From: an uncultured Clostridia bacterium | Lineage (GTDB): Bacteria; Bacillota; Clostridia; TANB77; CAG-508 | DNA length: 64,000 bases | Direction of reading: 5' to 3' | Assembly (NCBI GenBank): GCA_934120395.1 | Contig: CAKOTZ010000002.1 | Location: 33,645 to 97,644 of the forward strand | Shown here: positions 7,603-62,910 of the stretch, in pieces | How positions within the stretch are numbered: position 1 is the first letter of the stretch | Layout of the letters: every line of letters begins with the position of its first letter | Notes under the pieces: model-generated | What the model was told of the DNA's origin: nothing | Database searches by the model: none | Seen by the model: only the letters and a program-made list of their open reading frames with translations | Position numbers and translations under genes: made by a program

Positions 7603-8508
7603 TTATAGTAATTTTGATTTTAGTAATATTACAACCGGTCGAACATAGTTTTTGTATGTCTTCCAGCCATTACTTCCTGGGTCAGCTCCGCTTGCAACAC
7701 TTCCTTTATACTCTTGTGCTATTAAAGCTGTAACACTGTTTCCACTTACTCCATATACCTTATTGCTCCCATAATTATCATTAAGCCAATATACAGCTCC
7801 AATATTTCTATAGCTTGCTGCAACTCCTTCTGCTTCTGCTTTTGTTAAAAGTCGTCCACTACCTCCTAAGTTGCTCCCAAATGAGCTTGCTTGACTTTTT
7901 GCGTCACCCCAATTTGCACTTCCTATAGTTGTTTTACATAGCAATGTTACATTAGTTCCATCATCTCCTATTACATAAAAATCATATCCTCCAACGCTTA
8001 CTGTTTCTCCATTTGAATACGTTGTTTTTTTGTTTACCTTTAATGTATACTCAACTGACTTCTCTTTATATTCTTTTGTTCCTGCACTTGTTACTTTTAT
8101 TATAACAGTTTCATCTACATTCTTTGGTGTTACTGTTATTTTATTTCCGCTTATAGTAGCTGTTGCAATATCTTCGTTTAATGTTTTTACGCTTAAATCT
8201 CCTCCACTTATATTTTTTATTACGTCAAATGTTATTGTATTCGGATAAGTACATTCTCCACTTGTTGCTGAAAGTTCTATTTCTCCTTCTTTTCTATTTA
8301 ATAAATCAAAGTATTCTTCTACTTTATTTAACAAATTTTGTTCATTTGTTGCCTTTTCTTGATATTTATCAACACTAGACTGTGCCTTGTTAATTAATCC
8401 ATTCTCTCCTAGCAACATTGACAAACTCACTCCTGCTAGAATTAGCAAAACAATAATTGTAATTATCAATGCTACCAATGTGATTGCTTTGTTACTTTTC
8501 AAGTTCAT
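7603..8508 (-). CDS. Pilin-like (class-III-signal-like N-terminus) surface protein, short paralog 1, with Ig-like domain
   Basis: N-terminus MNLKSNKAITLVALIITIIVLLILAGVSLSMLLGENGLINKAQSS resembles a prepilin leader plus hydrophobic helix. aa 1-235 are near-identical to the gene at 10770-11645; the last ~65 aa diverge. RBS AAAGGAAAGAGG. Confidence 0.8.
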   Translation of the reverse strand: MNLKSNKAITLVALIITIIVLLILAGVSLSMLLGENGLINKAQSSVDKYQEKATNEQNLLNKVEEYFDLLNRKEGEIELSATSGECTYPNTITFDVIKNISGGDLSVKTLNEDIATATISGNKITVTPKNVDETVIIKVTSAGTKEYKEKSVEYTLKVNKKTTYSNGETVSVGGYDFYVIGDDGTNVTLLCKTTIGSANWGDAKSQASSFGSNLGGSGRLLTKAEAEGVAASYRNIGAVYWLNDNYGSNKVYGVSGNSVTALIAQEYKGSVASGADPGSNGWKTYKNYVRPVVILLKSKLL

Positions 8509-8605
8509 TTTTATACCTCTTTCCTTTGTATTTATACATAAAATTATAATTTTAGTTTATCCGTATATAATCAATATTATGTAATTCTATGTTAATTAGT
8601 TAACC

Positions 8606-8637
8606 GTATTTTATACTATTATTTTGAACTTGTAAAG
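8606..8637 (-). promoter_or_regulatory. Sigma-A-type promoter of pilin-like paralog 1
   Basis: Minus strand: TTTACA, 17 nt, TAAAAT (extended TATAAAAT). Conserved in all four modules. Confidence 0.55.
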
Positions 8638-8644
8638 TAAAATT

Positions 8645-8680
8645 GAAAAAAACTTACCTTTACATGGTAAGTTTTTTGTT
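8645..8680. terminator. Bidirectional rho-independent terminator hairpin (module A)
   Basis: gaaaaaaacttacctttacatggtaagttttttg: acttacc/ggtaagt stem, flanked by an A-run and a T-run. Confidence 0.65.
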
Positions 8681-8985
8681 CTTCGCTTTCTTTTCCGCGA
8701 TTTATCACAAATATCATTTTTTCCATTCGGTTCTTCCCACTGGAGCTGTAACATTGCTCCCGCAATTAACAGCTCTCAGCGGTCCCCACGGAAAACCTCA
8801 TTTCAAAAATATATTTGTTCTTCTCGCTAATGAGATGCTAATTTTTAAGCATTAAAAATGCCTCTTACTAGCCGTAAGAAAAATATTTGCACTCTCACGG
8901 AACGGCTAAATTTTCATATATTTTTGTGTAGGCGGTAACACGTATGAAAAAAAGCATAAAAAAATCAAGCAATTTCGTATTAATG

Positions 8986-10227
8986 CTACTTTAAATATAA
9001 TACAACTCTAAATCCAAGACCACAATCAGTTCCGGTTAAATTTCCATCACAATGCCTATAACAAACTGGATGAATATTTGATGGGTCACGGAAACTTCCC
9101 CCTCTAAAAACATGCTCTATTTCACTATTGCCAATCTCATCAGTATATTCCCAAAGATTTCCTGCTATATCATAAGTATGATACATTTCCGAAACTTTAC
9201 TTGCTCCTATTGTAAACAAAGTATATCTTTCTGTTTCACCTGTTATTTTATTTTTAAAATCTGTAATATACCATTTTGTATCATTAAGAGTTGCTGTAGC
9301 ACTTCTACCACTATACGATATTGAATTTAATCCGTAATTTCCAATTAGACCTGAATCGAACAAATCATTTTTAGAAAATATAATTCCACTTTCGTTAGTT
9401 TTTCCAATACATTTTTGTATCATTACGTCCCATTGGGTTCCTGAAATTAATTTACTTGACACTGTTTCGCTTTTTTCATACATTTTCTCTGCATTCTTTT
9501 TGCAAAATTCATAACTTATAAAATTCCAAGGTATCTTTCCTGCTTTTGATAACGGAATTCCATCAATATTATAACCCACATTACTTGTACTTAATACTGT
9601 TCCACTATATTCTATAATTTCATCAGCTAATCCAGCTTCGTATCTTCCTATATAAAAACCTCCGTACTTTTTTATTTGTTCAACTTCCTTTGTTGATATA
9701 CCACTAGTATCATAATTTCCTCCAATCATATAATTTGAACCCCAATCTGTTTTGTGATACTCTTCCTCTGTGCATGGAATCCATACAAATTGATTTCCTG
9801 CCAAGCTTGTCGTATATTCCCATGTTGTTTTGTCTATTTTTCCATCATAGGCATCAGCTGGGTCGTCTGATATGATTACTCCATTATCTAAATTTCCACC
9901 AACATAGTAAAAATTCTTAGGTACTGGTATTATATTTTTCTTATCATCAAGTACAGCATCTACTGCGTCTTTATTCCAGCCACCTGGCAAATCTACTTTT
10001 GTGCCTGGTGATTTCAGTTGTAAATCCATATAACTTTCTATACTGTTTAATAATTTTTGTTCATTTTCACTACTTTCTTTATATCTATTCACACTTGACT
10101 GTGCCTTGTTAATCAAGCCATTTTCTCCTAGTACCATTGATAAACTTACTCCTGCTAGAATTAGCAAAACAATAATTGTAATTATCAATGCTACTAATGT
10201 GATAGCTTTATTACTTTTCAAATTCAT
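8986..10227 (-). CDS. Pilin-like N-terminus protein with C-terminal FGE-sulfatase (SUMF1/DUF323)-like domain, long paralog 2
   Basis: Same N-terminus as paralog 1. C-terminus ...YDIAGNLWEYTDE...VFRGGSFRD...CYRHCDG...GLGFRVVLYLK carries FGE-sulfatase family motifs. The first ~170 aa are ~95% identical to the 12112-13368 gene. Confidence 0.8.
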   Translation of the reverse strand: MNLKSNKAITLVALIITIIVLLILAGVSLSMVLGENGLINKAQSSVNRYKESSENEQKLLNSIESYMDLQLKSPGTKVDLPGGWNKDAVDAVLDDKKNIIPVPKNFYYVGGNLDNGVIISDDPADAYDGKIDKTTWEYTTSLAGNQFVWIPCTEEEYHKTDWGSNYMIGGNYDTSGISTKEVEQIKKYGGFYIGRYEAGLADEIIEYSGTVLSTSNVGYNIDGIPLSKAGKIPWNFISYEFCKKNAEKMYEKSETVSSKLISGTQWDVMIQKCIGKTNESGIIFSKNDLFDSGLIGNYGLNSISYSGRSATATLNDTKWYITDFKNKITGETERYTLFTIGASKVSEMYHTYDIAGNLWEYTDEIGNSEIEHVFRGGSFRDPSNIHPVCYRHCDGNLTGTDCGLGFRVVLYLK

Positions 10228-10769
10228 TTTTATACCTCTTTCCTTTGTGTTTCTATATAAAATTATAATTTTAGCTTATCCATCTTTAATCAATATTATG
10301 TAATTCTATGTTAATTAGTTAACTGTATTTTATACTATTATCTTGAACTTGTAAAGTACAATTGAAAAAAACTTACCTTTACAATGGTAAGCTTTTGTTC
10401 TTCGCTTTCTTTTCCGCGATTTATCACAAATATCATTTTTTCCATTCGGTTCTTCCCACTGGAGCTGTAACATTGCTTTCGCAATTAACAGCTCTCAGCG
10501 GTCCCCACGGAAAACCTCATTTCAAAAATATATTTGTTCTTCTCGCTAATGCATTGCTAATTTTAAAACACTTGAATAAGTCTATCACTAGCCGAAGACA
10601 AAAATATATAAAATTTAAAAGTGAGTTCGACCTTGAAGCAGTTATTCACTACACAAGTTTAGAATGTGTTCAATAGAATTTGAAAAGGCTGTCTCTCAAG
10701 CGCCTTGGAGAACGGAACGGCTAAATTTTCATATATTTTTGTGTAGGCGGTAACACTGTAGTAAAAAAA
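10228..10769. repeat. Duplicated intergenic module B (carries a ~100-nt insertion relative to module A)
   Basis: Aligned with 8509-8985. The extra segment ...aaaatttaaaagtgagttcgaccttgaagcag...ctctcaagcgccttggagaacgg is shared with module C. Confidence 0.85.
10325..10357 (-). promoter_or_regulatory. Sigma-A-type promoter of pilin-like paralog 2
   Basis: Same TTTACA-N17-TAAAAT arrangement as module A. Confidence 0.5.
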
Positions 10770-11645
10770 CTACAATTTAGATTTAGAGATAACTACAACT
10801 GGGCGCACATATAATGGTCCAGTTCCACTACTCCTATCTATATAAAAATAGTTAATGAATTTATCATAATCAACATACCATGCACATTTAGAACCATTTG
10901 CATACCCGTAATAATCATTAAGCCAGTAATGTATTCCAATGTCGCGATATTTCACTGCAACCCCTTCTGCTTCTGCTTTTGTTAAAAGTCGTCCACTTCC
11001 ACCTAAGTTGCTTCCAAATGTACTTGCTTGACTTTTTGCACCGTTCCAATTATTACTACCTATAGTTGTTTTACATAGCAAGGTCACATTAGTTCCATCA
11101 TCTCCTATTACATAAAAACTATATCCTCCAACGCTTACTGTTTCTCCATTTGAATACGTTGTTTTTTTGTTTACCTTTAATGTATACTCAACTGACTTTT
11201 CTTTATATTCTTTTGTTCCTGCACTTGTTACTTTTATTATTACAGTTTCATCTACATTTTTTGGCGTTACCGTTATTGTATTTCCGCTTATAGTAGCTGT
11301 TGCAATATCTTCGTTTAATGTTTTTACGCTTAAATCTCCTCCACTTGTATTTTTTATTACATCAAATGTTATTGTATTTGGATAAGTACATTCTCCACTT
11401 GTTGCTGAAAGTTCTATTTCTCCTTCTTTTCTATTTAGTAAGTCAAAGTATTCTTCTACTTTATTTAACAAATTTTGTTCATTTGTTGCCTTTTCTTGGT
11501 ATTTATTCACACTAGACTGTACTTTGTTAATTAATCCATTCTCTCCTAGCACCATTGACAAACTCACTCCTGCTAATATTAAAAGTATAATTATTGTAAT
11601 TATCAATGCTACTAATGTGATTGCTTTGTTACTTTTCAAGTTCAT
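10770..11645 (-). CDS. Pilin-like surface protein, short paralog 3 (Ig-like domain, divergent C-terminal 65 aa)
   Basis: True start is MNLKSNKAITL at 11645, with the conserved RBS. The track's 22-codon upstream extension (MFRCEQNKTIILCRNTKERGIK) overlaps the leader and RBS. Confidence 0.8.
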   Translation of the reverse strand: MNLKSNKAITLVALIITIIILLILAGVSLSMVLGENGLINKVQSSVNKYQEKATNEQNLLNKVEEYFDLLNRKEGEIELSATSGECTYPNTITFDVIKNTSGGDLSVKTLNEDIATATISGNTITVTPKNVDETVIIKVTSAGTKEYKEKSVEYTLKVNKKTTYSNGETVSVGGYSFYVIGDDGTNVTLLCKTTIGSNNWNGAKSQASTFGSNLGGSGRLLTKAEAEGVAVKYRDIGIHYWLNDYYGYANGSKCAWYVDYDKFINYFYIDRSSGTGPLYVRPVVVISKSKL

Positions 11646-12111
11646 TTTTATACCTCTTTCCTTTGTGTTTCTACATAAAATTATAGTTTTATTTTGTTCA
11701 CATCTAAACAATATTATGTAATTCTATGTTAATCAGTTAACCGTATTTTATACTATTATCTTGAACTTGTAAAGTACAATTGAAAAAAACTCACCTTTGT
11801 ATGGTAAGCTTTTCGTTTCTTGACTTTCTTTTCCGCGATTTATCACAAATATCATTTTTTCCATTCGGTTCTTCCTAGTCGAAAGCAAAAATATATAAAA
11901 TTTAAAAGTGAGTTCGACCTTGAAGCAGTAATTCACTACACAAGTTTAGAATGTGTTCAATAAAATCTGAAAAGGCTGTCTCTCAAGCGCCTTGGAGAAC
12001 GGAACGGCTAAATTTTCATATATTTTTGTGTAGGCGGTAACACGGCAATAGACTAGAAAACACACAAATTCAATATATCAGCTTATGTTACTATTAATCT
12101 ACACATTTCCA
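11646..12111. repeat. Duplicated intergenic module C (terminator hairpin degenerate: actcacc/ggtaagc)
   Basis: Aligned with modules A and B. Lacks part of the central GC-rich segment but has the module-B insertion. Confidence 0.8.
11744..11776 (-). promoter_or_regulatory. Sigma-A-type promoter of pilin-like paralog 3
   Basis: Conserved TTTACA / TATAAAAT elements. Confidence 0.5.
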
Positions 12112-13368
12112 CTATTTTATATAAAGTGCAACTCGAAATCCGAAAGTACAAACCATATAAGAAACAGCGTAATTCCCCAAACGACAACATGCTGGACAAA
12201 TCTCTGAAACATCATAAGAAGAACCTCCTCGAAGAACCTTATAACCGCTCCCATGTCCTACTTCATCTGTCCATTCCCATACATTTCCTGCTACATCATA
12301 AACATGATATACCTCTGTGTCTTTACATGCTCCAGTTGTAAATTCTATACGTGTATTTTCCTTTATAGATGCATTTGTTTGTTTTTCTCCCCATTGCTTT
12401 ATATACCAATTATTTCCACTTTGAAATATTGTCGCTGACCTTCCTGTATATGTTAGACTATTATTATAATAATTTCCCCATTTGCTTGAATCTTTTATGT
12501 CTACTTCTGTAAATGCTAGTCCTTTTGTATTTGTTGTTCCCATAAATTTATTTAACATTACATCCCATTGCGTTCCTGTTATTAATCCACTCGTTACGCA
12601 ATCGTTATTCTCATACATTTTTTCTGCACTTGCTTTACTATTAGTATAACTAATATAACTCCATGGCAATTTTTCCGCTTTCGATTTTGGTATTCCTATT
12701 GAATTATATCCAGCAGGACTACTAACTCCATCGCTTATCTGTTCTTTTATATACTCTGCTATTCCATCTGCTAAGCCAGCTTCATATCTTGCTACATAAA
12801 AACCATTATATTTCTTTACCTTATCTATCTCAGCTTGATTTGGTCCTGTTTTGTCATATCCAACACCAACATACTTGCTTCCCCAATCTGTTTTGTGATA
12901 CTCTTCCTCTGTGCATGGTATCCATACAAATTGATTTCCTGCCAAGCTTGTCGTATATTCCCATGTTGTTTTGTCAATTTTACCATCATAGGCATCTGCT
13001 GAATTATCTGATATGATTACTCCATTATCTAAATTTCCACCTACATAATAAAAATTCTTAGGCACTGGTATTATATTTTTCTTATCATCAAGTACAGCAT
13101 CTACTGTGTCTTTATTCCAGCCATCTGGAACATCTATTTTTGTTCCTGGTGATTTTAGTTGTAAATCCATATAACTTTCTATACTGTTTAATAATTTTTG
13201 TTCATTTTCACTACTTTCTTTATATCTATTCACACTAGACTGTGCTTTGTTAATTAATCCATTCTCTCCTAGCACCATTGACAAACTCACTCCTGCTAGA
13301 ATTAGCAAAACAATAATTGTAATTATCAATGCTACTAATGTGATTGCTCTGTTACTTTTCAAGTTCAT
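12112..13368 (-). CDS. Pilin-like N-terminus protein with C-terminal FGE-sulfatase-like domain, long paralog 4
   Basis: True start is MNLKSNRAITL at 13368. C-terminus ...VYDVAGNVWEWTDE...VLRGGSSYD...FGFRVALYIK. The N-terminal ~170 aa are near-identical to paralog 2. Confidence 0.8.
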   Translation of the reverse strand: MNLKSNRAITLVALIITIIVLLILAGVSLSMVLGENGLINKAQSSVNRYKESSENEQKLLNSIESYMDLQLKSPGTKIDVPDGWNKDTVDAVLDDKKNIIPVPKNFYYVGGNLDNGVIISDNSADAYDGKIDKTTWEYTTSLAGNQFVWIPCTEEEYHKTDWGSKYVGVGYDKTGPNQAEIDKVKKYNGFYVARYEAGLADGIAEYIKEQISDGVSSPAGYNSIGIPKSKAEKLPWSYISYTNSKASAEKMYENNDCVTSGLITGTQWDVMLNKFMGTTNTKGLAFTEVDIKDSSKWGNYYNNSLTYTGRSATIFQSGNNWYIKQWGEKQTNASIKENTRIEFTTGACKDTEVYHVYDVAGNVWEWTDEVGHGSGYKVLRGGSSYDVSEICPACCRLGNYAVSYMVCTFGFRVALYIK

Positions 13369-13556
13369 TTTTATACCTCTTTCCTTTGTGTTTCTACATA
13401 AAATTACTGTTTTATTTTGTTCACATTTAAACAATATTATGTAATTCTATATTAATCAGTTAACCGTATTTTATACTATTATCTTGAACTTGTAAAGTAC
13501 AATTTAAAAAAACTTACCTTCAACATGGTAAGTTTTTTGTTGTTTTATATTTTTTC
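13369..13556. repeat. Partial module D (terminator, promoter and leader only)
   Basis: Contains the acttacc...ggtaagt hairpin (13512-13533), the TTTACA/TATAAAAT promoter (13466-13497), and the conserved leader and RBS. Confidence 0.8.
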
Positions 13557-14204
13557 CTATTCTTCATTTTCCTCAGCTTTTAACTCTAGTAGTTTTTTAT
13601 CAAAATGTAGTGCAGTTGCTGTAACTGTAAGTCCAAATACAAATAATGCAATTGGCATTGCTAAAGCATTAACTGGTATTCTAGCAATTGTATAAATACT
13701 TGCTAGCACTGCTTCTGCTGCAACAGATGTTACAATAGTCCATAATGCAACCTTCCAAAATGTTAATTTCCAATAACGAACCGCCATATATACAACAATT
13801 ATTGCAAGCACAATTAAACTTGGTACTATATAGTTTTTTACAATATTTTTTATTTCAATAGCAGGGCTTTTTATAATATTAATATCTGATACACTATATT
13901 CTAAAGAATACTTTTCATTAACCAACTGTATTAATTTTTCTAGTTGCTCATCAGATGCGGACTTTACCGTTATTGCTGCCATATCCTCAAAAATTTCTAT
14001 AGTTTGTACTCTTACATTTTCATTTTCAAATACTTGATTTGCTATTTCTTTTATTTCGTCTTTGTTTATACTTTTTCCAATATATATTTCTATTTTTTCA
14101 TTTTCACCATAAGCTAGTCCTAAATTAAAACCTTTTGTTACTCCCATAACAATTCCAAGAATGATTATTATAGTAACAATTCCATATAGTATTTTTTTGC
14201 TCAT
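13557..14204 (-). CDS. SecF-like protein-export membrane protein (short, divergent)
   Basis: 215 aa. N-terminal TM, soluble domain, then C-terminal TM bundle ...VYMAVRYWKLTFWKVALWTIV... This recalls SecF topology, and it sits beside the SecD-like gene. Confidence 0.4.
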   Translation of the reverse strand: MSKKILYGIVTIIIILGIVMGVTKGFNLGLAYGENEKIEIYIGKSINKDEIKEIANQVFENENVRVQTIEIFEDMAAITVKSASDEQLEKLIQLVNEKYSLEYSVSDINIIKSPAIEIKNIVKNYIVPSLIVLAIIVVYMAVRYWKLTFWKVALWTIVTSVAAEAVLASIYTIARIPVNALAMPIALFVFGLTVTATALHFDKKLLELKAEENEE

Positions 14205-14222
14205 TTATTTATCCTCCCATTT

Positions 14223-15536
14223 TTAATCTTTCAATAGATTTCTAACAATTAAATAATTGTATGCAGTTTCTATTATTAGTCCCCAGAATAGTGCTGTTCC
14301 AAAGCTTACCATTGGTAACCATGTAACAAAACAAAATACAATAGAAATTACATATAACGGAATTTGAGCTAAAGTCATTTTTAAAATATTATCATCCATT
14401 TTTTTGCTATTTGTATCTTTTGCCAATTTAGCTAAGAATACAAGTTCCATAATACCTGCTAGCAAAATTGCAAACATGCTTCCAATAGCTAGTGGTACAT
14501 TTGTAAAACGTATTAATAACATTACTATTGCAAAATAACCAACTAAGCTTATAGCAGCTAAAAGCCCATTCTTTTTGTAACGAATAATTAAATATAGCAT
14601 TGAAAGTACAACTAATACTACAGCTATTAAAACGATTCTATTTAATGCAGTACTATCAATTATAGGTGATACATATTGATTTTCTCCTGATGTATATACA
14701 ATTGGTAATGTTTGATTATTTAATATCATAGCAATATATGATGCTGTTGTTGCTGTATCACTAATTTCTGTGCTATCAGTACTAGCATCTCCCATTGGGA
14801 TTTGAATTTGTCCGTCAGATATTGTCTCTCCAAAATAAGTTGTTAATAATGTTTGGTCATCAATTTTTATTGTGATTGTCTTTTTAGTTTTTGTTCCATC
14901 CTCGCCTGTTGTTTCTATATATTCGTTTGTAACATCTTCTAATTTTTTAACGGCATCTTTATTAAATTTTAAATTCAAATAAACTGTAGTGCCTTTTTCA
15001 CTAGAATAGTACATAACTTGTGCTTTTTCTAAATCACTTTTGCTTAATAATACTTCTTTTGAATCTGTACCTATTATGTTAAAGTCTCCCTGCTCCATTA
15101 AGAATTGTAAAACATTATCTGTTGTAGTACTATCAGGCATATCCACGATTATTTTTCCATCTTCTTCGTTTACTCGTATATCGTATTCTTCAATTTTTGC
15201 TTCTTGCAATCTTTTTTCAATAATATCTTTACATAGTTTATAATTATCTGTATTTAGCACCTCAGCTGAATTTACAGTTTCTTTTGTCTCTTCACTGTTT
15301 TCTGTATTATCACTTGCTGTTTCGTCTGTACTTGCTTTATCACTTTTTTTCTCAGAAGTATCTACCTTAAATGTAATTAATCTTGACCCCTTCAACTCTT
15401 TACCTAAAGCATAATCAGGTAAAATATTTTTCATACTTCCCTTATCGTATTGATAAATTCCTACAAAAGCAATTAATGATACTAGTATAATTGCAACAAG
15501 TATTACTAGTATTTTTAAATTTTTTCTCTCTTTCAC
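14223..15536 (-). CDS. SecD-like protein-export membrane protein (divergent)
   Basis: 437 aa. N-terminal TM, a ~250-aa extracytoplasmic domain, and a C-terminal TM bundle with YLIIRYKKNGLLAAISLVGYFAIVMLL...IGSMFAILLAGIM. The pattern resembles the SecD core. Confidence 0.45.
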   Translation of the reverse strand: MKERKNLKILVILVAIILVSLIAFVGIYQYDKGSMKNILPDYALGKELKGSRLITFKVDTSEKKSDKASTDETASDNTENSEETKETVNSAEVLNTDNYKLCKDIIEKRLQEAKIEEYDIRVNEEDGKIIVDMPDSTTTDNVLQFLMEQGDFNIIGTDSKEVLLSKSDLEKAQVMYYSSEKGTTVYLNLKFNKDAVKKLEDVTNEYIETTGEDGTKTKKTITIKIDDQTLLTTYFGETISDGQIQIPMGDASTDSTEISDTATTASYIAMILNNQTLPIVYTSGENQYVSPIIDSTALNRIVLIAVVLVVLSMLYLIIRYKKNGLLAAISLVGYFAIVMLLIRFTNVPLAIGSMFAILLAGIMELVFLAKLAKDTNSKKMDDNILKMTLAQIPLYVISIVFCFVTWLPMVSFGTALFWGLIIETAYNYLIVRNLLKD

Positions 15537-27821: not shown

Positions 27822-27897
<76 letters not shown>

Positions 27898-27948: not shown

Positions 27949-28605
27949 TTATTCTTCATTTAAAGTATATTGACCAATATCAGGTTCATTAAAAACTGAA
28001 TCATCTACATTATCAAATTCATAATCATATTTATTTTCTGTATTCGTATAGCTACCTAGACATAATCCTGTTTCCTTTTCAATATACAAATCATTTCTTT
28101 TTGAATCATATTCATATAGAGAATATGGAGATAAGAAATTTGTTACCTTATAACAGTCCTTTCCATTATATTTAACATTTGTTATTATTGTTGGAATACC
28201 ATACATAAAATTTTGCCATTTATTTTCTGTTTTTAACATATCATTAATACCTATTGCCATAGATTTTGCAGCATTTAAGGTTACAGTTTTCGAATCAGCT
28301 GTCTCTATAAATCTGTCTATTCGTTCGCCATTATTGTACATTGACATTTTAATATTTTCATTGTCTTTATTTCTCTCTATTATTACTAATTCCTTATTTG
28401 ACTTTTTAAAATAATTAGTAGTTACTGTTACACCATTTTCTACTTTTGAAATTAAACTCATATGATAATTTTCACTGCTAATATATTTTCCAACTTTATT
28501 TTGCATTTCAGTAATAATCAGAAAATTCCTAACAGCATGAAGCAAAGCTAGCATAATTAGGATTATTAATATAATTCCTATTATTTTAAACATTTTTTTA
28601 TTCAT
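27949..28605 (-). CDS. Hypothetical secreted / signal-anchored protein
   Basis: Start at MNKKMFKIIGIILIILIML with RBS GGGGGAA. No recognisable domain. Low GC like the rest of the chromosome. Confidence 0.55.
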   Translation of the reverse strand: MNKKMFKIIGIILIILIMLALLHAVRNFLIITEMQNKVGKYISSENYHMSLISKVENGVTVTTNYFKKSNKELVIIERNKDNENIKMSMYNNGERIDRFIETADSKTVTLNAAKSMAIGINDMLKTENKWQNFMYGIPTIITNVKYNGKDCYKVTNFLSPYSLYEYDSKRNDLYIEKETGLCLGSYTNTENKYDYEFDNVDDSVFNEPDIGQYTLNEE

Positions 28606-28796
28606 ATCAAATTCCCCCTTTATTCTTATTATAATGATTGTAGTTTGAACTTGTATATAAATTCTCTTTGCTAATACATATATATATTTTACCATAATTT
28701 GTCGATTTAAGCAAATTATCCTGGCAAAAAGAAAAATAGAGTTTTTGAATTCTCAAAATCTCTATTTCCCTTTTAGCTTAATTACTCAAGCATATC

Positions 28797-29744
28797 TTAC
28801 TTGATACAAAGTACAACCCTAAATCCCACATATGGATAAATGCTACGGGCATCTTCAGCATGCCTAGATGCTGCTGAAAAACCTAATCCAGAATGAAAAT
28901 ACGCACCACCTCTAGTAATATGTCTTGCGCCAAATTTTCCGAAGCTTTCCTGCGTCCATTCCATTACATTGCCAGCTAAATCATAGATTCCATTTACTTT
29001 CCATTTTTCCCTGCTGCCAGTAAGCTCCATCTTGCTAGGTTCGTCACTAATCATTGACTTGTAATTTCCCCAGCCCATAGAATTTGAGGTGAAATCTGTC
29101 CTCTTCTTGGCTCCAGATTCTTCGATCCACTTACATACAGTATCATATTCGGCTCCATAGGTAAGATGACTTTTCACATCTTTGCTACGTTCAAACTTTT
29201 CAGCCAAATCTTCTGCCCTATGAAAGCTGACATCTACCATTGGCTTAACACCAGCAATTGAATGAATATTTCCATCATCTCCTAAAGACATATTATATGC
29301 CGAGATATAAAATCCTCCATGCTTTTTTACACTGGAAATTTGTGCTAATAACTCCGGATTAATGTTTTCATGGTATTTGGAAGGGGAAAAAATTAATCCC
29401 ATGCTGTTAACTCTTCCAAATTTTTCATCAAATACAATGCCATCCAAAGTTGCATTTGCACTTAAATCGCCAACAGGGACCCAGACAAAGCGACTTCCGT
29501 CACTCTCTCTTTCAATGGTATAACCACTGTTCCATTTTCCATCCAAGTATTTATAACCTGCCGGAATAATAGGCTTACTATATTTGCTTGAATAGCCCTC
29601 TGTTCTTGCTTCTCCCTTAACAGCATGAATCTCAACAATTTTATTTGTTTCACTCATATTGCTAAGCTTAACGCCTTCACCTGCAACAATTCTAATCCCT
29701 GTGAGATTCTTCATGTTTGCCTTATCAAGTTCATACCGTTTCAT
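28797..29744 (-). CDS. FGE-sulfatase (SUMF1/DUF323)-domain protein, cytoplasmic or anchor-less paralog of the pilin-like long proteins; GC-rich gene
   Basis: ...RFVWVPVGD...KKHGGFYISAYNMS...IYDLAGNVMEWTQE...ITRGGAYFHSGLGFS...VGFRVVLCIK. Collinear with the C-terminal domain of the 8986 and 12112 proteins. GC is visibly higher (~43%) than the surroundings. Confidence 0.8.
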   Translation of the reverse strand: MKRYELDKANMKNLTGIRIVAGEGVKLSNMSETNKIVEIHAVKGEARTEGYSSKYSKPIIPAGYKYLDGKWNSGYTIERESDGSRFVWVPVGDLSANATLDGIVFDEKFGRVNSMGLIFSPSKYHENINPELLAQISSVKKHGGFYISAYNMSLGDDGNIHSIAGVKPMVDVSFHRAEDLAEKFERSKDVKSHLTYGAEYDTVCKWIEESGAKKRTDFTSNSMGWGNYKSMISDEPSKMELTGSREKWKVNGIYDLAGNVMEWTQESFGKFGARHITRGGAYFHSGLGFSAASRHAEDARSIYPYVGFRVVLCIK

Positions 29745-50310: not shown

Positions 50311-50567
50311 AATTACTAGTGTTTTGTATTTATGATTCATAAAATAACATTTCATATAAAGCCCCGCCTTAGCCGTCTAGTAAGAATTTTTAAGGACCTG
50401 TTGTTCACAGGTGGGTGCCCTCTTAAATACTCTTGGGTTTCTTAAATAAATTCAAGCATACACGCCATATCTAAAGTTAGGCTCCCGTTTCTATCTTGTT
50501 GGTTCTAAAAATTCCATCCTGTCACGAACCATGCAGGGAAAATTAATTTCTTTACCTTTATGTTGTA
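50311..50567 (-). ncRNA. Candidate small RNA (class unknown) with its own sigma-A promoter and rho-independent terminator
   Basis: Promoter TTGAAG-N17-TAATAT at ~50575-50603 (minus strand). A GC-rich structured body at 50340-50530 has no ORF longer than 13 codons. Terminator hairpin aacactagtaa/ttactagtgtt at 50311-50337 is followed by a U-run. Confidence 0.35.
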
Positions 50568-59234: not shown

Positions 59235-59427
59235 ATTGCAATACAAATGCGCAACTTATAGCAATATTGCTATAGTTATTATAGCATTTATGCTATTCTA
59301 TGTCAAACTAATTTTTTATACCTCTTCCCCATATAATAGTTTTGCATAAAACAAGATTTTTGTGCAAGACCAAGAGAAGGAAGCTTCTCTTCGTCTTGCT
59401 ATAATAAAACAAAGGGAGGAAATTATT

Positions 59428-62400
59428 TTGGATAAGAAAAAAATAATATCATCAATAACATTAGCTGGAATGTTGGCAACAAGCGTTGCAGGTTCTGGAG
59501 TATTTGCTGCAGAAACATCTGACCCAGCAACAAAAGCATTAGGAGAATACTCAAAATTAATCACAGGAAAAGTAGCAGTTCCTTTCATATTACAATCTGA
59601 AACAGATAGAGTAACAGGAAAAGACGTAAAAGCTTCTTTCAAAAATGCAACAACATTTACATTCAATTCATCAGCATTAACAGATGAACAAGTATTAACT
59701 ACAGGAGATGTAGTATATGTAAATGGAGAACCAAGAACAATAGTAATATATGGAGATACAAACTGTGATGGAAAAATCAATATAATGGATGCCGTTACAG
59801 TATTAAATCATGTAAAAGGAAAAACAACATTAACAGATGCAGCATTTGCAGCAGCTGATTTAAACAACAATGGTTCATTAAACATATTAGAAGCAACTGG
59901 AGTATTAAATGTTGCTAAAGGTAAAGCTGATTACCAAAACATTGCAACAGCTCCTACTGTTGAAGTTTCTGTATTAAAAGATGTTGAAATTAGTTCTGGT
60001 AAAATTAAATTAACATTTGACATGAATCCAGATGGATATTCATATAAATTATCTAATAAAGATGGAAGAGTAAGTGGAACAATAATTACAGATTCAAAGA
60101 AGGACACTAATACAGGTTTATATGTAAAAGAAATTTCTGCAGCAACAATGAATAAAAATGACAATGATTATACAATTGCAATATTAGATAAAAATGGAAA
60201 TGAAATTGCATCAAAAACATTTACATATAGAGAAATAAAACCCGTTACAGCAATAGATGCTGGTAAGGGAATTGGTTCAGAAAATGTAAAAGCATTTTCT
60301 GTAAAAGTAAATTTGACAAATTACAATGAGGTTGCTACAAAAGTATTAGCAACATTAAGTGATGGAGAAAAAACAATTGAAACAACAGCTAATTTACCAG
60401 CTAATACAGTTGCAACAGAATTAAATTTTGGAGATGTTAGTGCATTAAAAGATGATGAAAATATAAAAATTAAAACAAAAATTGTTGATGCTGATGGAAA
60501 TTACATTGAGGATACTTTAGATAAAAAAATCATAAAAAAAGTAGAAGCTCCTAAAATATTTGTAGAAAGTACTAGCCGTACAGGAACAAATACTGGAAAA
60601 GTAACTATTAAAAAGACAGCTGCAGACACAGTATATGTAATAGCTAAAAAAGCTGGAGAAACAGCACCAACAGTTGCTGAATTAAAAGAGAGTGCAAATA
60701 AAATTGAACCTACAGATACATTCGCTAATGTTAATATAACAGGCGATGCATACAAAGTATATGTGTTAGCTGTAAATCCACAAGGTACACCTTCTGAAAT
60801 TGTTGTAGCTGACATTGCTTCTTCAACAGCAGAAAAACTAACAAATGTTACAAATCTAAAGATGGATGCAACAAATGGTGTAGCAACATGGAAAGATACT
60901 AATACTAATAAGGTAACCGGATATACAGTACAAATATTAAAAGGTAGTGAAATAATTAAAGAAACAACTGTAAATGAAGCCAAATATGATATTTCCTCAA
61001 TTGCTAAAGAAAACGGAGATGCTACTTATACAGTTAAAGTAAGAGCAAATGGTGATAATACTACAACAGCTAATTCAGAATATGAAACTGCAAAAGGTAG
61101 TGGTTATATAGTAGATCCATTAGAGGTTACTGAAGCAAAATTTGTAGAAGGTATAGTATCATGGAAAGATGTTGATGCTAAAGCAGCTGAAAAAGTAGTT
61201 GTTAAATTATATAAAGTAACTGAAATGAAGAGTGCTGCAGAGATTAAAGATAAAAAATTAGTAAAAGAAGTAAATTGTGCTAATAACACTTATTCATATG
61301 ACATGAATTCTGTAATGAAAGCAGAGGGAAATGGAAGATATGTTGCAACTGTTACTTTAATAGCAAAGGCAGATGAAGCTGAAGTTGATTCTGATGAAAC
61401 TATTGCTACAGGAACATATTATATTGCACCTGCTGTAACAAATGTAAAAGCCACAGCAACAGATAATACTATTACTGTAAGATTTGCTCCAATAGATAAT
61501 ATTGTTGGATTAGATGAAAATTACAAATTAGTATATAGTTCTTATAATGAATCAGATGATACTTGGAGCAGTGAAAATGAGGTTACAATTTCAACAACAG
61601 CAAGCGATGAAAATGATAAAAAAGAATTTACAATAACTAATGCTACAGCTTCTACAAAATACAAATTTAGTATTCAAACACGTAAAGGGACAACTGTTTT
61701 AGCAGAAACATCTACTATGGAAGTTAGCACAAGTGCAACATTAGTTAAAGGCTTAAATGATTATTATACTTTTAAAGATATTTCAGCTAAAAATGCTAAA
61801 TTAGAGACTGATAAAACACTAGGAATTAATTATGAAGGCGAATTGATGATTAAACGCCCTTCAACTACTGCTGCTGAAAATGTTGATACAGCTCCTAATG
61901 CTGCTGAAATTAAATCAGTTATTAAAATGTTAAAAGATGGAGACAAAATTTTAATTGATGCAAATGGAAAAGTAAGTGCAATTGAAATAACTGCAAGTAG
62001 TAGTGTTGATAGAACTGTTAACCTTGGAACTGCTGTAAAAGATGCTGCATTAACAATTAAAGCAAAGGCAAATTATAATGTAATTGTTAATGGTGAAGTT
62101 AAATCAGTTACAGTAGAAAAAGTTACAGGTGAAACTTCTGAAGGAAAAGCTGATTTAGTTGGTTTAACTGTTACAGATAAAGTAACTGTAGAAGATGCAA
62201 CTGTTGATGTAAAAGCTGGAACTACAGTAAATGCGAAAAATGCAACAATAAATGGTGTATTTATTAAGTCAGAAAAAACAAAAGCTCCAGATACTAAAGT
62301 AGTAGTACCAACTGAATTAGTTGCAAACTCAGCTAATGAATTAGCAATTAAAGCTGATAATACAACAACAGTTACTTTAAAAGCTGATGCTGATAAAACT

Positions 62401-62910
62401 GTAAGATTTAATGGAACACAAGGTGATGTTACAATTGCTGATGGTAAAAAAGAAGCTACATTAACATTAAAAACAGATGCTGATTCTTCAATTGGAACAT
62501 TAGCATTAAATTCAGCAAAAACAACTGTAAATATAGTTGATGCTTATGTTACATCGAATTTACATATAACTGCAGGAACTATTGTTACAGATGCAATAGT
62601 TAATGATACAAAAAAGAATATAAAGGTTACTCCAATCACAGGAAATGCAACAGTTGAATATACAAAGGACAGTAGTGGTAAAAATGATATTACAAATATT
62701 TCTGGAAATGTAAAAATTGAATTAACTGGATTAGACGGTATATCTGAAGCAATAACTACAGAAACAAAATTAGAAAAAGATATTAGTGTGGTTGTTGTTA
62801 ATGAAGGTGTTAATGCTACATATAATACACCAAAAGCTACTACTGCAACAGGACATGATGGAGAAATGACAATAACATTAACAGCTGGAACAATTACACT
62901 TAATAGATAA
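59428..62910 (+). CDS. Giant secreted Ig/FN3-like repeat surface protein with N-proximal type I dockerin module; probable TTG start
   Basis: RBS GGGAGG 8 nt before the TTG at 59428. Signal peptide KKKIISSITLAGMLATSVAGSGVFAAE. Dockerin duplicated calcium-binding loops DTNCDGKINIMDAVTVLNHV / DLNNNGSLNILEATGVLNV. Then ~1000 aa of beta-rich repeats. The track places the start at 59362 (GTG). Confidence 0.8.
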   Translation: MDKKKIISSITLAGMLATSVAGSGVFAAETSDPATKALGEYSKLITGKVAVPFILQSETDRVTGKDVKASFKNATTFTFNSSALTDEQVLTTGDVVYVNGEPRTIVIYGDTNCDGKINIMDAVTVLNHVKGKTTLTDAAFAAADLNNNGSLNILEATGVLNVAKGKADYQNIATAPTVEVSVLKDVEISSGKIKLTFDMNPDGYSYKLSNKDGRVSGTIITDSKKDTNTGLYVKEISAATMNKNDNDYTIAILDKNGNEIASKTFTYREIKPVTAIDAGKGIGSENVKAFSVKVNLTNYNEVATKVLATLSDGEKTIETTANLPANTVATELNFGDVSALKDDENIKIKTKIVDADGNYIEDTLDKKIIKKVEAPKIFVESTSRTGTNTGKVTIKKTAADTVYVIAKKAGETAPTVAELKESANKIEPTDTFANVNITGDAYKVYVLAVNPQGTPSEIVVADIASSTAEKLTNVTNLKMDATNGVATWKDTNTNKVTGYTVQILKGSEIIKETTVNEAKYDISSIAKENGDATYTVKVRANGDNTTTANSEYETAKGSGYIVDPLEVTEAKFVEGIVSWKDVDAKAAEKVVVKLYKVTEMKSAAEIKDKKLVKEVNCANNTYSYDMNSVMKAEGNGRYVATVTLIAKADEAEVDSDETIATGTYYIAPAVTNVKATATDNTITVRFAPIDNIVGLDENYKLVYSSYNESDDTWSSENEVTISTTASDENDKKEFTITNATASTKYKFSIQTRKGTTVLAETSTMEVSTSATLVKGLNDYYTFKDISAKNAKLETDKTLGINYEGELMIKRPSTTAAENVDTAPNAAEIKSVIKMLKDGDKILIDANGKVSAIEITASSSVDRTVNLGTAVKDAALTIKAKANYNVIVNGEVKSVTVEKVTGETSEGKADLVGLTVTDKVTVEDATVDVKAGTTVNAKNATINGVFIKSEKTKAPDTKVVVPTELVANSANELAIKADNTTTVTLKADADKTVRFNGTQGDVTIADGKKEATLTLKTDADSSIGTLALNSAKTTVNIVDAYVTSNLHITAGTIVTDAIVNDTKKNIKVTPITGNATVEYTKDSSGKNDITNISGNVKIELTGLDGISEAITTETKLEKDISVVVVNEGVNATYNTPKATTATGHDGEMTITLTAGTITLNR

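Follow-up and report, generated by a model that had tools for sequence, protein, structure and literature searches.

We analysed a 64,000-nucleotide (nt) stretch of DNA from an uncultured Clostridia bacterium (assembly GCA_934120395.1, contig CAKOTZ010000002.1; hereafter 'the window'), in which four consecutive minus-strand genes within positions 7603-13556, named here short1, long1, short2 and long2, lie in tandem. Our preferred reading, to which we give a probability of roughly 0.6, is that the array consists of four independently transcribed cassettes belonging to a very large unnamed multigene family of gut Clostridia, and that each cassette encodes a conserved N-terminal carrier module joined to a lectin module of the type diversified by diversity-generating retroelements (DGRs). 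Each of the parts is of a known kind: the lectin scaffolds are of the DGR type, the spacer is Ig-like and the helix resembles that of pilins. What seems undescribed in the literature searched is the combination of these parts, the class of carrier with Ile at +1 and no Glu at +5, and the strain-variable cassettes with promoters of their own.

A duplicated array of two long and two short genes

Both the list of open reading frames (ORFs) and an alignment of the translations bear out the earlier sequence-only reading that four consecutive minus-strand genes share a near-identical N-terminus. In all four proteins the common start reads MNLKSN(K/R)AITLVALIITII(V/I)LLILAGVSLSM(V/L)LGENGLINK(A/V)QSS. 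The genes are as follows (aa, amino acids; FGE, formylglycine-generating enzyme).

12112-13368, minus strand: long2 gene, 418 aa; carrier module and FGE/C-type-lectin-fold domain (ORF list, alignment, Pfam)
10770-11645, minus strand: short2 gene, 291 aa; carrier module, Ig-like domain and Lcl_C/DUF6273-like lectin domain
8986-10227, minus strand: long1 gene, 413 aa; carrier module and FGE/C-type-lectin-fold domain (AlphaFold2 and Foldseek)
7603-8508, minus strand: short1 gene, 301 aa; carrier module, Ig-like domain and Lcl_C/DUF6273-like lectin domain

Lengths of 413, 440, 301 and 313 aa had been proposed for the four proteins, of which 413 and 301 aa hold; those of 440 and 313 aa count from an upstream TTG and become 418 and 291 aa when counted from ATG. 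The same ribosome-binding site, GGAAAGAGG, precedes this ATG in long2 and in short2, and the ATG behind it is the likely start codon of both genes. Verbatim copies of all four proteins are present in the public protein collection, where long2, short2 and long1 are identical to P0369, P0138 and P0364, respectively.

The first 216 nt of the four genes are 78-94% identical in pairwise comparison. Self-BLAST found 91-92% DNA identity across 660-980 nt within the long pair and within the short pair, and each pair is therefore the product of duplication and not of chance. Along the long pair, identity is ~91-92% in the part encoding the N-terminus and declines to ~70% in the part encoding the C-terminus; in the short pair only the last ~50 codons drop below detection.

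Every gene carries its own promoter-like site and conserved flanks

That the genes might have private promoters had been suggested from the sequence, and an identical promoter-like site, TTTACA-17-TAAAAT, does lie upstream of every one of them, followed by a near-identical 5' untranslated region (UTR) of ~95 nt. Upstream of each of these sites, in turn, is a copy of one element made up of a hairpin and a T-run (repeat family D5); a terminator scan scored three of the four copies, the short2 copy being left unscored.

13468-13496, minus strand: promoter-like site TTTACA-17-TAAAAT upstream of long2, invariant in alignment A1
11745-11773, minus strand: promoter-like site upstream of short2
10327-10355, minus strand: promoter-like site upstream of long1
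8608-8636, minus strand: promoter-like site upstream of short1
13501-13557, unstranded: terminator-like hairpin (AAAAAACTTACC...GGTAAGTTTTTT) before the long2 promoter (D5; terminator scan)
11777-11833, unstranded: weaker copy of the hairpin element before the short2 promoter (D5; 75% identical to the reference copy)
10359-10415, unstranded: terminator-like hairpin before the long1 promoter (D5; terminator scan)
8640-8696, unstranded: terminator-like hairpin before the short1 promoter (D5; terminator scan)
11834-12111, minus strand: conserved non-coding element downstream of long2, a mosaic of modules (alignment A1)
10416-10769, minus strand: conserved non-coding element downstream of short2, the fullest copy (alignment A1)
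8697-8985, minus strand: conserved non-coding element downstream of long1 (alignment)

The intergenic elements recur in arrays at other loci with 80-100% identity (mostly 84-95%) and are far better conserved across those arrays than the lectin domains. The segment 10356-10769, comprising the element downstream of short2 and the adjacent hairpin, has a folding z-score of -4.66 on the minus strand relative to shuffled sequence. Rfam scans of the whole window and of the array matched no riboswitch or other known RNA in the 5' UTRs or intergenic elements of the array, and the possibility that the intergenic element is a decayed gene was rejected, as blastx gave no coding remnant.

Two further features of these intergenic regions were recorded. 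A strong conserved hairpin, GGAGCUGU..UUGC-GNRA-GCAA..ACAGCUCC, is found on the minus strand in 8509-8985 and 10228-10769, one copy having a GGGA loop and the other a GAAA loop, and has no Rfam match; one of the copies falls within the well-folding segment 10356-10769. Inverted repeats of 19 nt, 89% complementary and 107 nt apart, occur in two of the three intergenic elements (10598-10616/10724-10742 and 11886-11903/12011-12028), the third (8509-8985) being without them; these repeats could be a small insertion resembling a miniature inverted-repeat transposable element, or an invertible segment.

Cassettes are present or absent depending on the strain

At the same locus of a strain with 98-99% identical flanks only the two long genes are present and both short genes are missing, and the long/short pair is thus not an obligate unit. 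A related array holds six long genes, no short gene and a gene for ToxN, and such arrays without short genes likewise rule out an obligate pair. Of the duplicated long/short pair that had been proposed from the sequence, the duplication therefore stands and the conserved unit does not. This and other related arrays sit between unrelated housekeeping genes; of the others, one is near dnaA, one is between valS and aspS, and one is between tsf and pyrH. As far as sequence comparison can indicate, the pattern would fit duplication, loss and recombination of whole cassettes at their conserved flanks.

A ToxN toxin gene, a HepT/nucleotidyltransferase pair and a transposase interrupt or border arrays in related genomes (L006 6626-7165; L012 8859-9507; L013 3350-4078), and these arrays appear to occupy hotspots of mobile and defence genes. 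A temperate phage contig (L009 8019-9194) carries a family member of ~391-400 aa with a GITLVAL N-terminus and an FGE-type C-terminus, located with the endolysin gene on one side and the integrase gene on the other, where lysogenic-conversion genes usually lie. Scanning a genome collection yielded one distant, frameshifted relative in a metagenome-assembled genome labelled 'Clostridia bacterium', a scan of a viral collection yielded three loci, and tblastn against cultured phages and plasmids gave no match.

The long forms have more than 4,800 homologues, many with a precomputed FGE-sulfatase match and none with a name in the sources searched; nor was any name attached to the carrier proteins whose source names were looked up. 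Literature searches with N-terminal peptide strings and with DGR and prepilin terms returned no paper describing this combination. Of the dedicated, undescribed system envisaged in the sequence-only reading, then, the novelty of the combination holds within the literature searched; the family, judged by the number of homologues, is not rare.

Long and short forms end in two kinds of C-type-lectin fold

The AlphaFold2 model of long1 (predicted local distance difference test (pLDDT) score 82, predicted template modelling score 0.76) consists of helices 4-33 and 38-71 followed by a globular domain. The best PDB matches of this model in Foldseek were Mtd (E 1e-4), PvdO, TvpA, FGE and TaqVP, with EgtB also among the structural matches, and the sequence profile of the long forms retrieved SUMF2 at E 3.5e-5 and, weakly, TvpA. 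Judged by the model and these matches, the long forms adopt the predicted FGE/C-type-lectin fold. The FGE-sulfatase domain previously assigned to both long forms is thereby upheld as a fold; the Pfam cut-off is passed by long2 alone (23.9 bits, cut-off 23.3; residues 325-415, covering the last third of the Pfam model only), and long1 has no Pfam FGE-sulfatase match.

The model of short1 (pLDDT 85.6) shows helices 4-33 and 38-70, an Ig-like sandwich at residues 77-160 and a C-terminal alpha/beta domain. The Ig-like domain that had been noticed in the short forms is corroborated by the model and by structural matches to S-layer and Big_2 Ig-like domains, and Pfam Big_2 is found in 6 of 33 homologues. 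The earlier description stopped at this domain and overlooked the one that follows: the C-terminal domain is a C-type-lectin fold of the Lcl_C/DUF6273 type, with Pfam DUF6273 matching 7 of 21 homologues (best E 1.6e-5) and, weakly, short2. Its stretch between the conserved motifs YWL and VRPVV varies among homologues in both sequence and length.

8031-8286, minus strand: Ig-like (Big_2-type) domain of short1, modelled beta-sandwich 77-160; the short2 equivalent lies at ~11169-11423
10806-10919, minus strand: hypervariable tip of the short2 lectin domain, flanked by the conserved motifs YWL and VRPVV
7642-7782, minus strand: hypervariable tip of the short1 lectin domain (variation among homologues; low model confidence at residues 269-278)

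Profile-profile comparison of the long-form with the short-form lectin domains detected no relationship between the two. Among DGR target proteins, the largest class is that with the FGE-sulfatase-type C-type-lectin fold (PMC5758913), a fact that corrects the earlier view that anchored proteins of this fold are known only as gliding proteins or enzymes. DUF6273 is likewise a C-type-lectin fold, whose C-terminal end is diversified by DGRs of gut phages (PMC10743442, PMC11792537). Because the folds match the FGE-sulfatase type in the long forms and the DUF6273 type in the short forms, the two gene types encode lectin-fold binding proteins of two kinds used as DGR scaffolds.

A fifth protein of the FGE-sulfatase fold is encoded in the window at 28797-29744 (minus strand; 315 aa, 35.9 bits). 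It is 27% identical to the C-terminal half of long1 and its N-terminus is neither hydrophobic nor pilin-like. The gene lies just downstream of an ORF read as rplS in an apparent ffh-rpsP-rimM-trmD-rplS region, in which ffh was confirmed by Pfam and rpsP, rimM, trmD and rplS were named from reading of the translations; it is followed by 27949-28695 (minus strand), encoding a 248-aa membrane protein with no Pfam match. In another genome (L018) a pilin-like family member, P0058, is found ~5 kb downstream of rplS.

The N-terminal carrier resembles a type IV pilin leader

All four proteins begin with the same 72-residue module.

13153-13368, minus strand: carrier module of long2, 72 aa (a basic leader, then the hydrophobic helix K-A↓ITLVAL, a break at GENG and an amphipathic helix)
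11430-11645, minus strand: carrier module of short2 (translation)
10012-10227, minus strand: carrier module of long1 (modelled helices 4-33 and 38-71)
8293-8508, minus strand: carrier module of short1 (modelled helices 4-33 and 38-70)

In both modelled proteins a hydrophobic helix of the alpha-1 type (4-33) comes right after the putative cleavage site, is broken at GENG (34-37) and gives way to a second helix (38-71) that runs straight into the lectin or Ig domain. Used as a query, the long1 module retrieved 20,843 representative proteins at E<=1e-3, 775 of them at E<=1e-10. The top 141 carrier relatives have Gly (104) or Ala (37) at -1, Ile at +1 in 140 cases, and at +5 Ala (136), Ser (3), Val (1) or Thr (1), never Glu. 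The Ala at -1, instead of Gly, and the lack of Glu at +5 that had been read off the window proteins are both seen in the alignment, where all four have Ala at either position. Among 91 proteins sharing the carrier, the C-terminal modules are many (BspA-type leucine-rich repeats/LRR_5, FGE-sulfatase, Big_2, H_lectin, Collar and others).

When compared with the PDB, the carrier profile gave seven matches, all of them marginal, of which four, including the best, are type IV pilins aligned in register (MshA at E 0.01; geopilin and PilA at E 0.14-0.18); the remainder are fibre proteins aligned outside the leader region. The resemblance to a class III leader with a hydrophobic helix, as proposed from the sequence, is supported, although the N_methyl hidden Markov model does not recognise it in the window proteins. 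Within our overall reading we tentatively regard the carrier, from its sequence features, as a diverged class III (type IV pilin-like) module devoid of Glu5, a simple anchor that is never cut off being roughly as probable; the proteins are not to be classed as type IV pilins.

Several observations weigh against our overall reading or against this view of the carrier. The window proteins score 10.7-12.9 bits against N_methyl (PF07963, IPR012902), the cut-off being 21.2, and Glu5, which is replaced by Ala in the window, is absent family-wide (141 relatives). No obvious pilin beta-sheet head is present in the models and no pilin is among the listed fold matches. No pilus-assembly or prepilin-peptidase gene was found in the window or within ~10 kb of family members at ~12 distinct loci. 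A stalk of ~35 residues on a membrane anchor may not span the thick Gram-positive wall, and surface display is accordingly an assumption. Finally, the idea that cassettes recombine is drawn solely from sequence patterns.

As for the window itself, the earlier statement that it encodes neither a prepilin peptidase nor a pilus assembly ATPase agrees with our motif search and Pfam scans: motifs for a GspE-type Walker A, an A24 peptidase or a sortase were not found in any frame, and Pfam assigned the neighbours of the array and 20 large ORFs (21.8-62.9 kb) to housekeeping families only, none of them a pilus-assembly family.

The strongest competing explanation is that these are ordinary bitopic membrane proteins, anchored by a signal sequence that stays uncleaved or made with a long Sec signal peptide that is removed after VLG33, and that the likeness to pilin leaders is convergent or vestigial. 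We consider this a serious contender, if somewhat short of even odds. The basic n-region followed by 26 uncharged residues is what such proteins would have, the segment falls short of the curated pilin model, Glu5 is missing and assembly genes are not found nearby. Furthermore, some family members have an unrelated transmembrane segment in place of the module (P0094, P0110, P0117-P0119) and others lack it altogether (the window protein 28797-29744 and the L002 protein 13475-14413), and NCBIfam matches to the carrier are mostly generic transmembrane-plus-helix models such as FliL. (An NCBIfam lead to PamR, a pilus protein of the Candidate Phyla Radiation, was discarded: that pilus is an unrelated, chaperone-usher-like one.) What this explanation does not account for is the extreme conservation of K-(G/A)-ITLxAL...LILAG and GxNG-(L/I)-x-x-A across ~20,000 representatives with unrelated C-terminal domains, whereas plain anchors normally drift.

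It is also possible, albeit doubtful, that the proteins are true modular type IV pilins, in which a prepilin peptidase cuts between Ala8 and Ile9, the helix inserts as a tip or cap subunit of a pilus or pseudopilus encoded elsewhere, and the lectin domain is carried past the cell wall by the filament. Absence of Glu5 is also a feature of the tip pseudopilin GspK, and Ala is the one substitution at -1 that PilD is known to tolerate. In favour of genuine pilins, the motif K-(G/A)-I-T-L-x-x-L is in register with the leaders of MshA, geopilin and PilA, N_methyl reaches E<1e-3 in 16 of the 91 module-sharing proteins, the module is nearly invariant, which is unusual for ordinary signal peptides, and one carrier with many binding modules fits the modular-pilin concept (PMC8179133). 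The sub-threshold N_methyl scores, the lack of Glu5 in 141 of 141 sampled relatives, the GENG break after the hydrophobic segment, the lack of an evident head domain and the absence of a pilus gene beside any examined locus all speak against it, as does the arrangement of the genes, which are scattered singly or arrayed with their own promoters, one of them between phage endolysin and integrase genes.

The lectin tips appear to be static

One distant relative of the array is linked to a DGR. P0062 (locus L004), a homologue with 44% identity over the full length and with the N-terminal module in common, is encoded directly upstream of bAvd and an RVT_1 reverse transcriptase, with type IV secretion genes adjoining. 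A second copy of the final ~124 nt of its gene lies downstream of the reverse transcriptase, giving matching variable and template repeats, and most mismatches between the two fall at AAY codons of the template; P0062 is a real DGR target. Downstream of the reverse transcriptase, L004 also contains six tandem units of ~316 nt (12799-14651), each with a copy resembling the template repeat, one of which is 89% identical to the variable region; this multi-template arrangement looks unusual.

Nowhere are the long forms more variable than in the segment that corresponds to the variable region of P0062. In close homologues, entropy is at most 0.27 bits over residues 1-40 and rises to 2.0-2.2 bits over residues 381-400 of long1, a peak falling in the same C-terminal RGG...GFR segment.

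12133-12231, minus strand: segment of long2 equivalent to a DGR variable region (RGGSSYDVSEICPACCRLGNYAVSYMVCTFGFR), the same RGG...GFR segment as the L004 variable region
9007-9105, minus strand: segment of long1 equivalent to a DGR variable region (RGGSFRDPSNIHPVCYRHCDGNLTGTDCGLGFR), with the highest entropy in the protein

Between strains these segments barely change. The long2 segment is identical in three orthologues (those of two other assemblies included), and in the long1 segment a single residue, 400, varies (T, V or A) in three assemblies; the same orthologues differ at 13-23 residues outside the segment. Self-BLAST of the 64 kb window at word size 9 found no template repeat and no further copy of the 3' ends of the genes, tblastn with the reverse transcriptase and Avd of L004 gave no match in the window, and, among 19 related loci, the two proteins are encoded at L004 and L005 only. 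Because the window contains no reverse transcriptase, Avd or template repeat and the tips are nearly invariant in orthologues, the array is best read, at the level of sequence, as a probably static repertoire of paralogues with no sign of ongoing DGR mutagenesis. Elsewhere in the family, one 90%-identity cluster of P0062-like homologues (~43-44% identical to long1) comprises two variable-region haplotypes on otherwise near-identical proteins.

Could the long genes, and perhaps the short ones, nevertheless be remote targets of an active DGR elsewhere in the genome, with tips that are hypermutating now? Several scattered targets are reportedly diversified in Treponema denticola (PMC5758913), one homologue is targeted by the DGR beside it, N, Y, S, C, D, H and G, the products of mutagenesis at AAY codons, abound in the variable segments, and residue 400 of long1 does differ among the three assemblies. 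We nonetheless consider this improbable. Besides the missing DGR components within 64 kb and the stability of the tips amid the 13-23 differences elsewhere, differences between the window paralogues extend to synonymous and non-adenine positions, the 3' recognition sequence that is GC-rich in L004 (GGTTTCCGTGCGGTACT) has drifted to an AT-rich counterpart in the window genes, and the short-form tips differ in length, an effect that DGRs do not cause.

The weakest alternative, which we judge very improbable, is that the long forms are membrane-tethered formylglycine-generating or related enzymes of the FGE, EgtB or PvdO type, as the Pfam FGE-sulfatase matches and the presence of FGE, EgtB and PvdO among the structural matches might suggest. 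In the profile alignment to human FGE (SUMF1, 2aft), the positions of Cys336 and Cys341, which we take to be the catalytic pair, are occupied in the family by variable non-cysteine residues or an insertion, and by entropy the equivalent stretch is the most variable part of the long forms; because the pair is not kept, an enzymatic role appears unlikely. In addition, the best fold matches are non-enzymatic DGR proteins, no sulfatase gene was found near the array, and TvpA, which has the same fold, has no FGE activity (PMC5758913).

Surroundings of the array in the window

Directly upstream of the array, two multi-pass membrane proteins are encoded on the minus strand at 13557-14204 (215 aa) and 14223-15536 (437 aa). 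The 437-aa protein has a SecDF_P1_head match, which is sub-threshold, and the two may be a diverged SecD/SecF-like pair. A functional link of these neighbours (13557-15536) to the array was considered and set aside: they are kept in the syntenic strain and do not accompany arrays elsewhere. At 59362-62910 (plus strand) a 1,182-aa protein with dockerin type I and fibronectin type III domains hints at a cellulosome-like surface system in the organism. The only Rfam matches in the window are a 6S RNA (50357-50542, minus strand, 98 bits) and a tRNA (27822-27894, plus strand).

A tentative model and its implications

In the model that we propose, the hydrophobic helix would anchor the protein in the cytoplasmic membrane so that the lectin domain faces outwards, and the paralogues would supply the cell with a repertoire of specificities, whether for glycans, for surfaces of the host or of microbes, or for phage. 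This repertoire would change by duplication and loss of cassettes and by recombination at their conserved 5' and 3' flanks. The carrier might additionally be a substrate for a prepilin peptidase and seat the protein at the tip of a filament, as happens in modular pilins and GspK. A bolder version, which we consider unlikely as a whole, would make the Glu5-less module K-(G/A)↓ITLxAL...LILAG-x(6-8)-GxNG an undescribed class of type IV-filament tip subunit, or a new display pathway, of gut Clostridia: a universal carrier for many binding modules, DGR-diversified lectins included, with the arrays serving as cassette repertoires that recombine at conserved flanks and vary both the surfaces to which the cell adheres and the agents that can adhere to the cell.

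Few natural scaffolds are made for binding variation on a massive scale; DGR-type lectin proteins belong to them, and in the gut they have been tied so far mainly to phage tail fibres and, recently, to the tips of Bacteroides type V pili. The locus described here offers a Clostridia counterpart, with the same two lectin scaffolds on one conserved pilin-like carrier in strain-variable arrays, and with one distant relative that couples a carrier-lectin protein to a DGR on a conjugative element. Should the carrier turn out to direct display, many 'hypothetical' surface proteins of uncultured gut Firmicutes could be annotated by it, and it would point to likely roles in adhesion, colonisation or phage interaction.

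Comparison with known systems

TvpA of Treponema denticola is described as a lipoprotein, whereas the window proteins have a pilin-like N-terminal helix and are encoded in tandem cassettes with their own promoters. The two nevertheless have much in common: TvpA (PDB 2Y3C; category 'b' of Wu et al. 2018, PMC5758913) has the same fold as the long forms, DGR proteins of its type and the long forms share the RGG...GFR scaffold in which variability is concentrated, and T. denticola reportedly has multiple scattered paralogues per genome (PMC5758913), as does this family. Unlike TvpA-type DGR systems, the window lacks a reverse transcriptase, Avd and a template repeat, and its variable regions are static between strains. 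The Mtd protein from Bordetella phage BPP-1 (PDB 1YU0-1YU4) is among the best fold matches of long1, at ~11% identity and low TM-scores (0.28-0.30); it is a trimeric tip protein of a phage tail fibre, whereas the window proteins are cellular and have a membrane helix. TaqVP, another fold match of long1, is a DGR variable protein of Thermus.

The short forms invite comparison with the DUF6273/Lcl_C (DUF1566) lectins, namely the phage 'tentaclins', the DGR targets of Faecalibacterium prophages (PMC10743442, PMC11792537) and the C-terminal domain of Legionella Lcl (PDB 8Q4E). The order of domains is Ig then lectin in the short forms and lectin then Ig in tentaclins. Furthermore, in contrast to the phage proteins, the short forms are cellular proteins with a membrane helix and not part of a virion, their tips vary in length and no DGR is linked to them.

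With modular type IV pilins, such as Streptococcus sanguinis PilB (vWA module) and PilC (lectin module) (PMC8179133), and with GspK, the array proteins share the plan of a short class III-like carrier bearing a bulky binding module, and in both modular pilins (PMC8179133) and the present family one carrier is combined with many modules. Modular pilins are, however, defined by IPR012902/N_methyl and the pilin fold; here the N_methyl match is sub-threshold, Glu5 is absent, +1 is Ile, a pilin head is not apparent and there are no linked pilus genes.

By analogy, the closest functional parallel would be the DGR-diversified tip adhesins of Bacteroides type V pili, BfrT, BthT and BunT (bioRxiv 10.1101/2024.11.15.621889). 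These differ from the proteins studied here in phylum and in having an unrelated carrier (a lipoprotein type V pilin versus a type IV-pilin-like helix), and the window, as compared to their loci, has no DGR and no stalk or anchor operon. The likeness lies in the design: in both cases gut bacteria place a variable head with a C-type-lectin fold on a carrier resembling a pilus subunit, and just as some of the Bacteroides adhesins are encoded on conjugative elements, the DGR-linked homologue at L004 lies beside type IV secretion genes.

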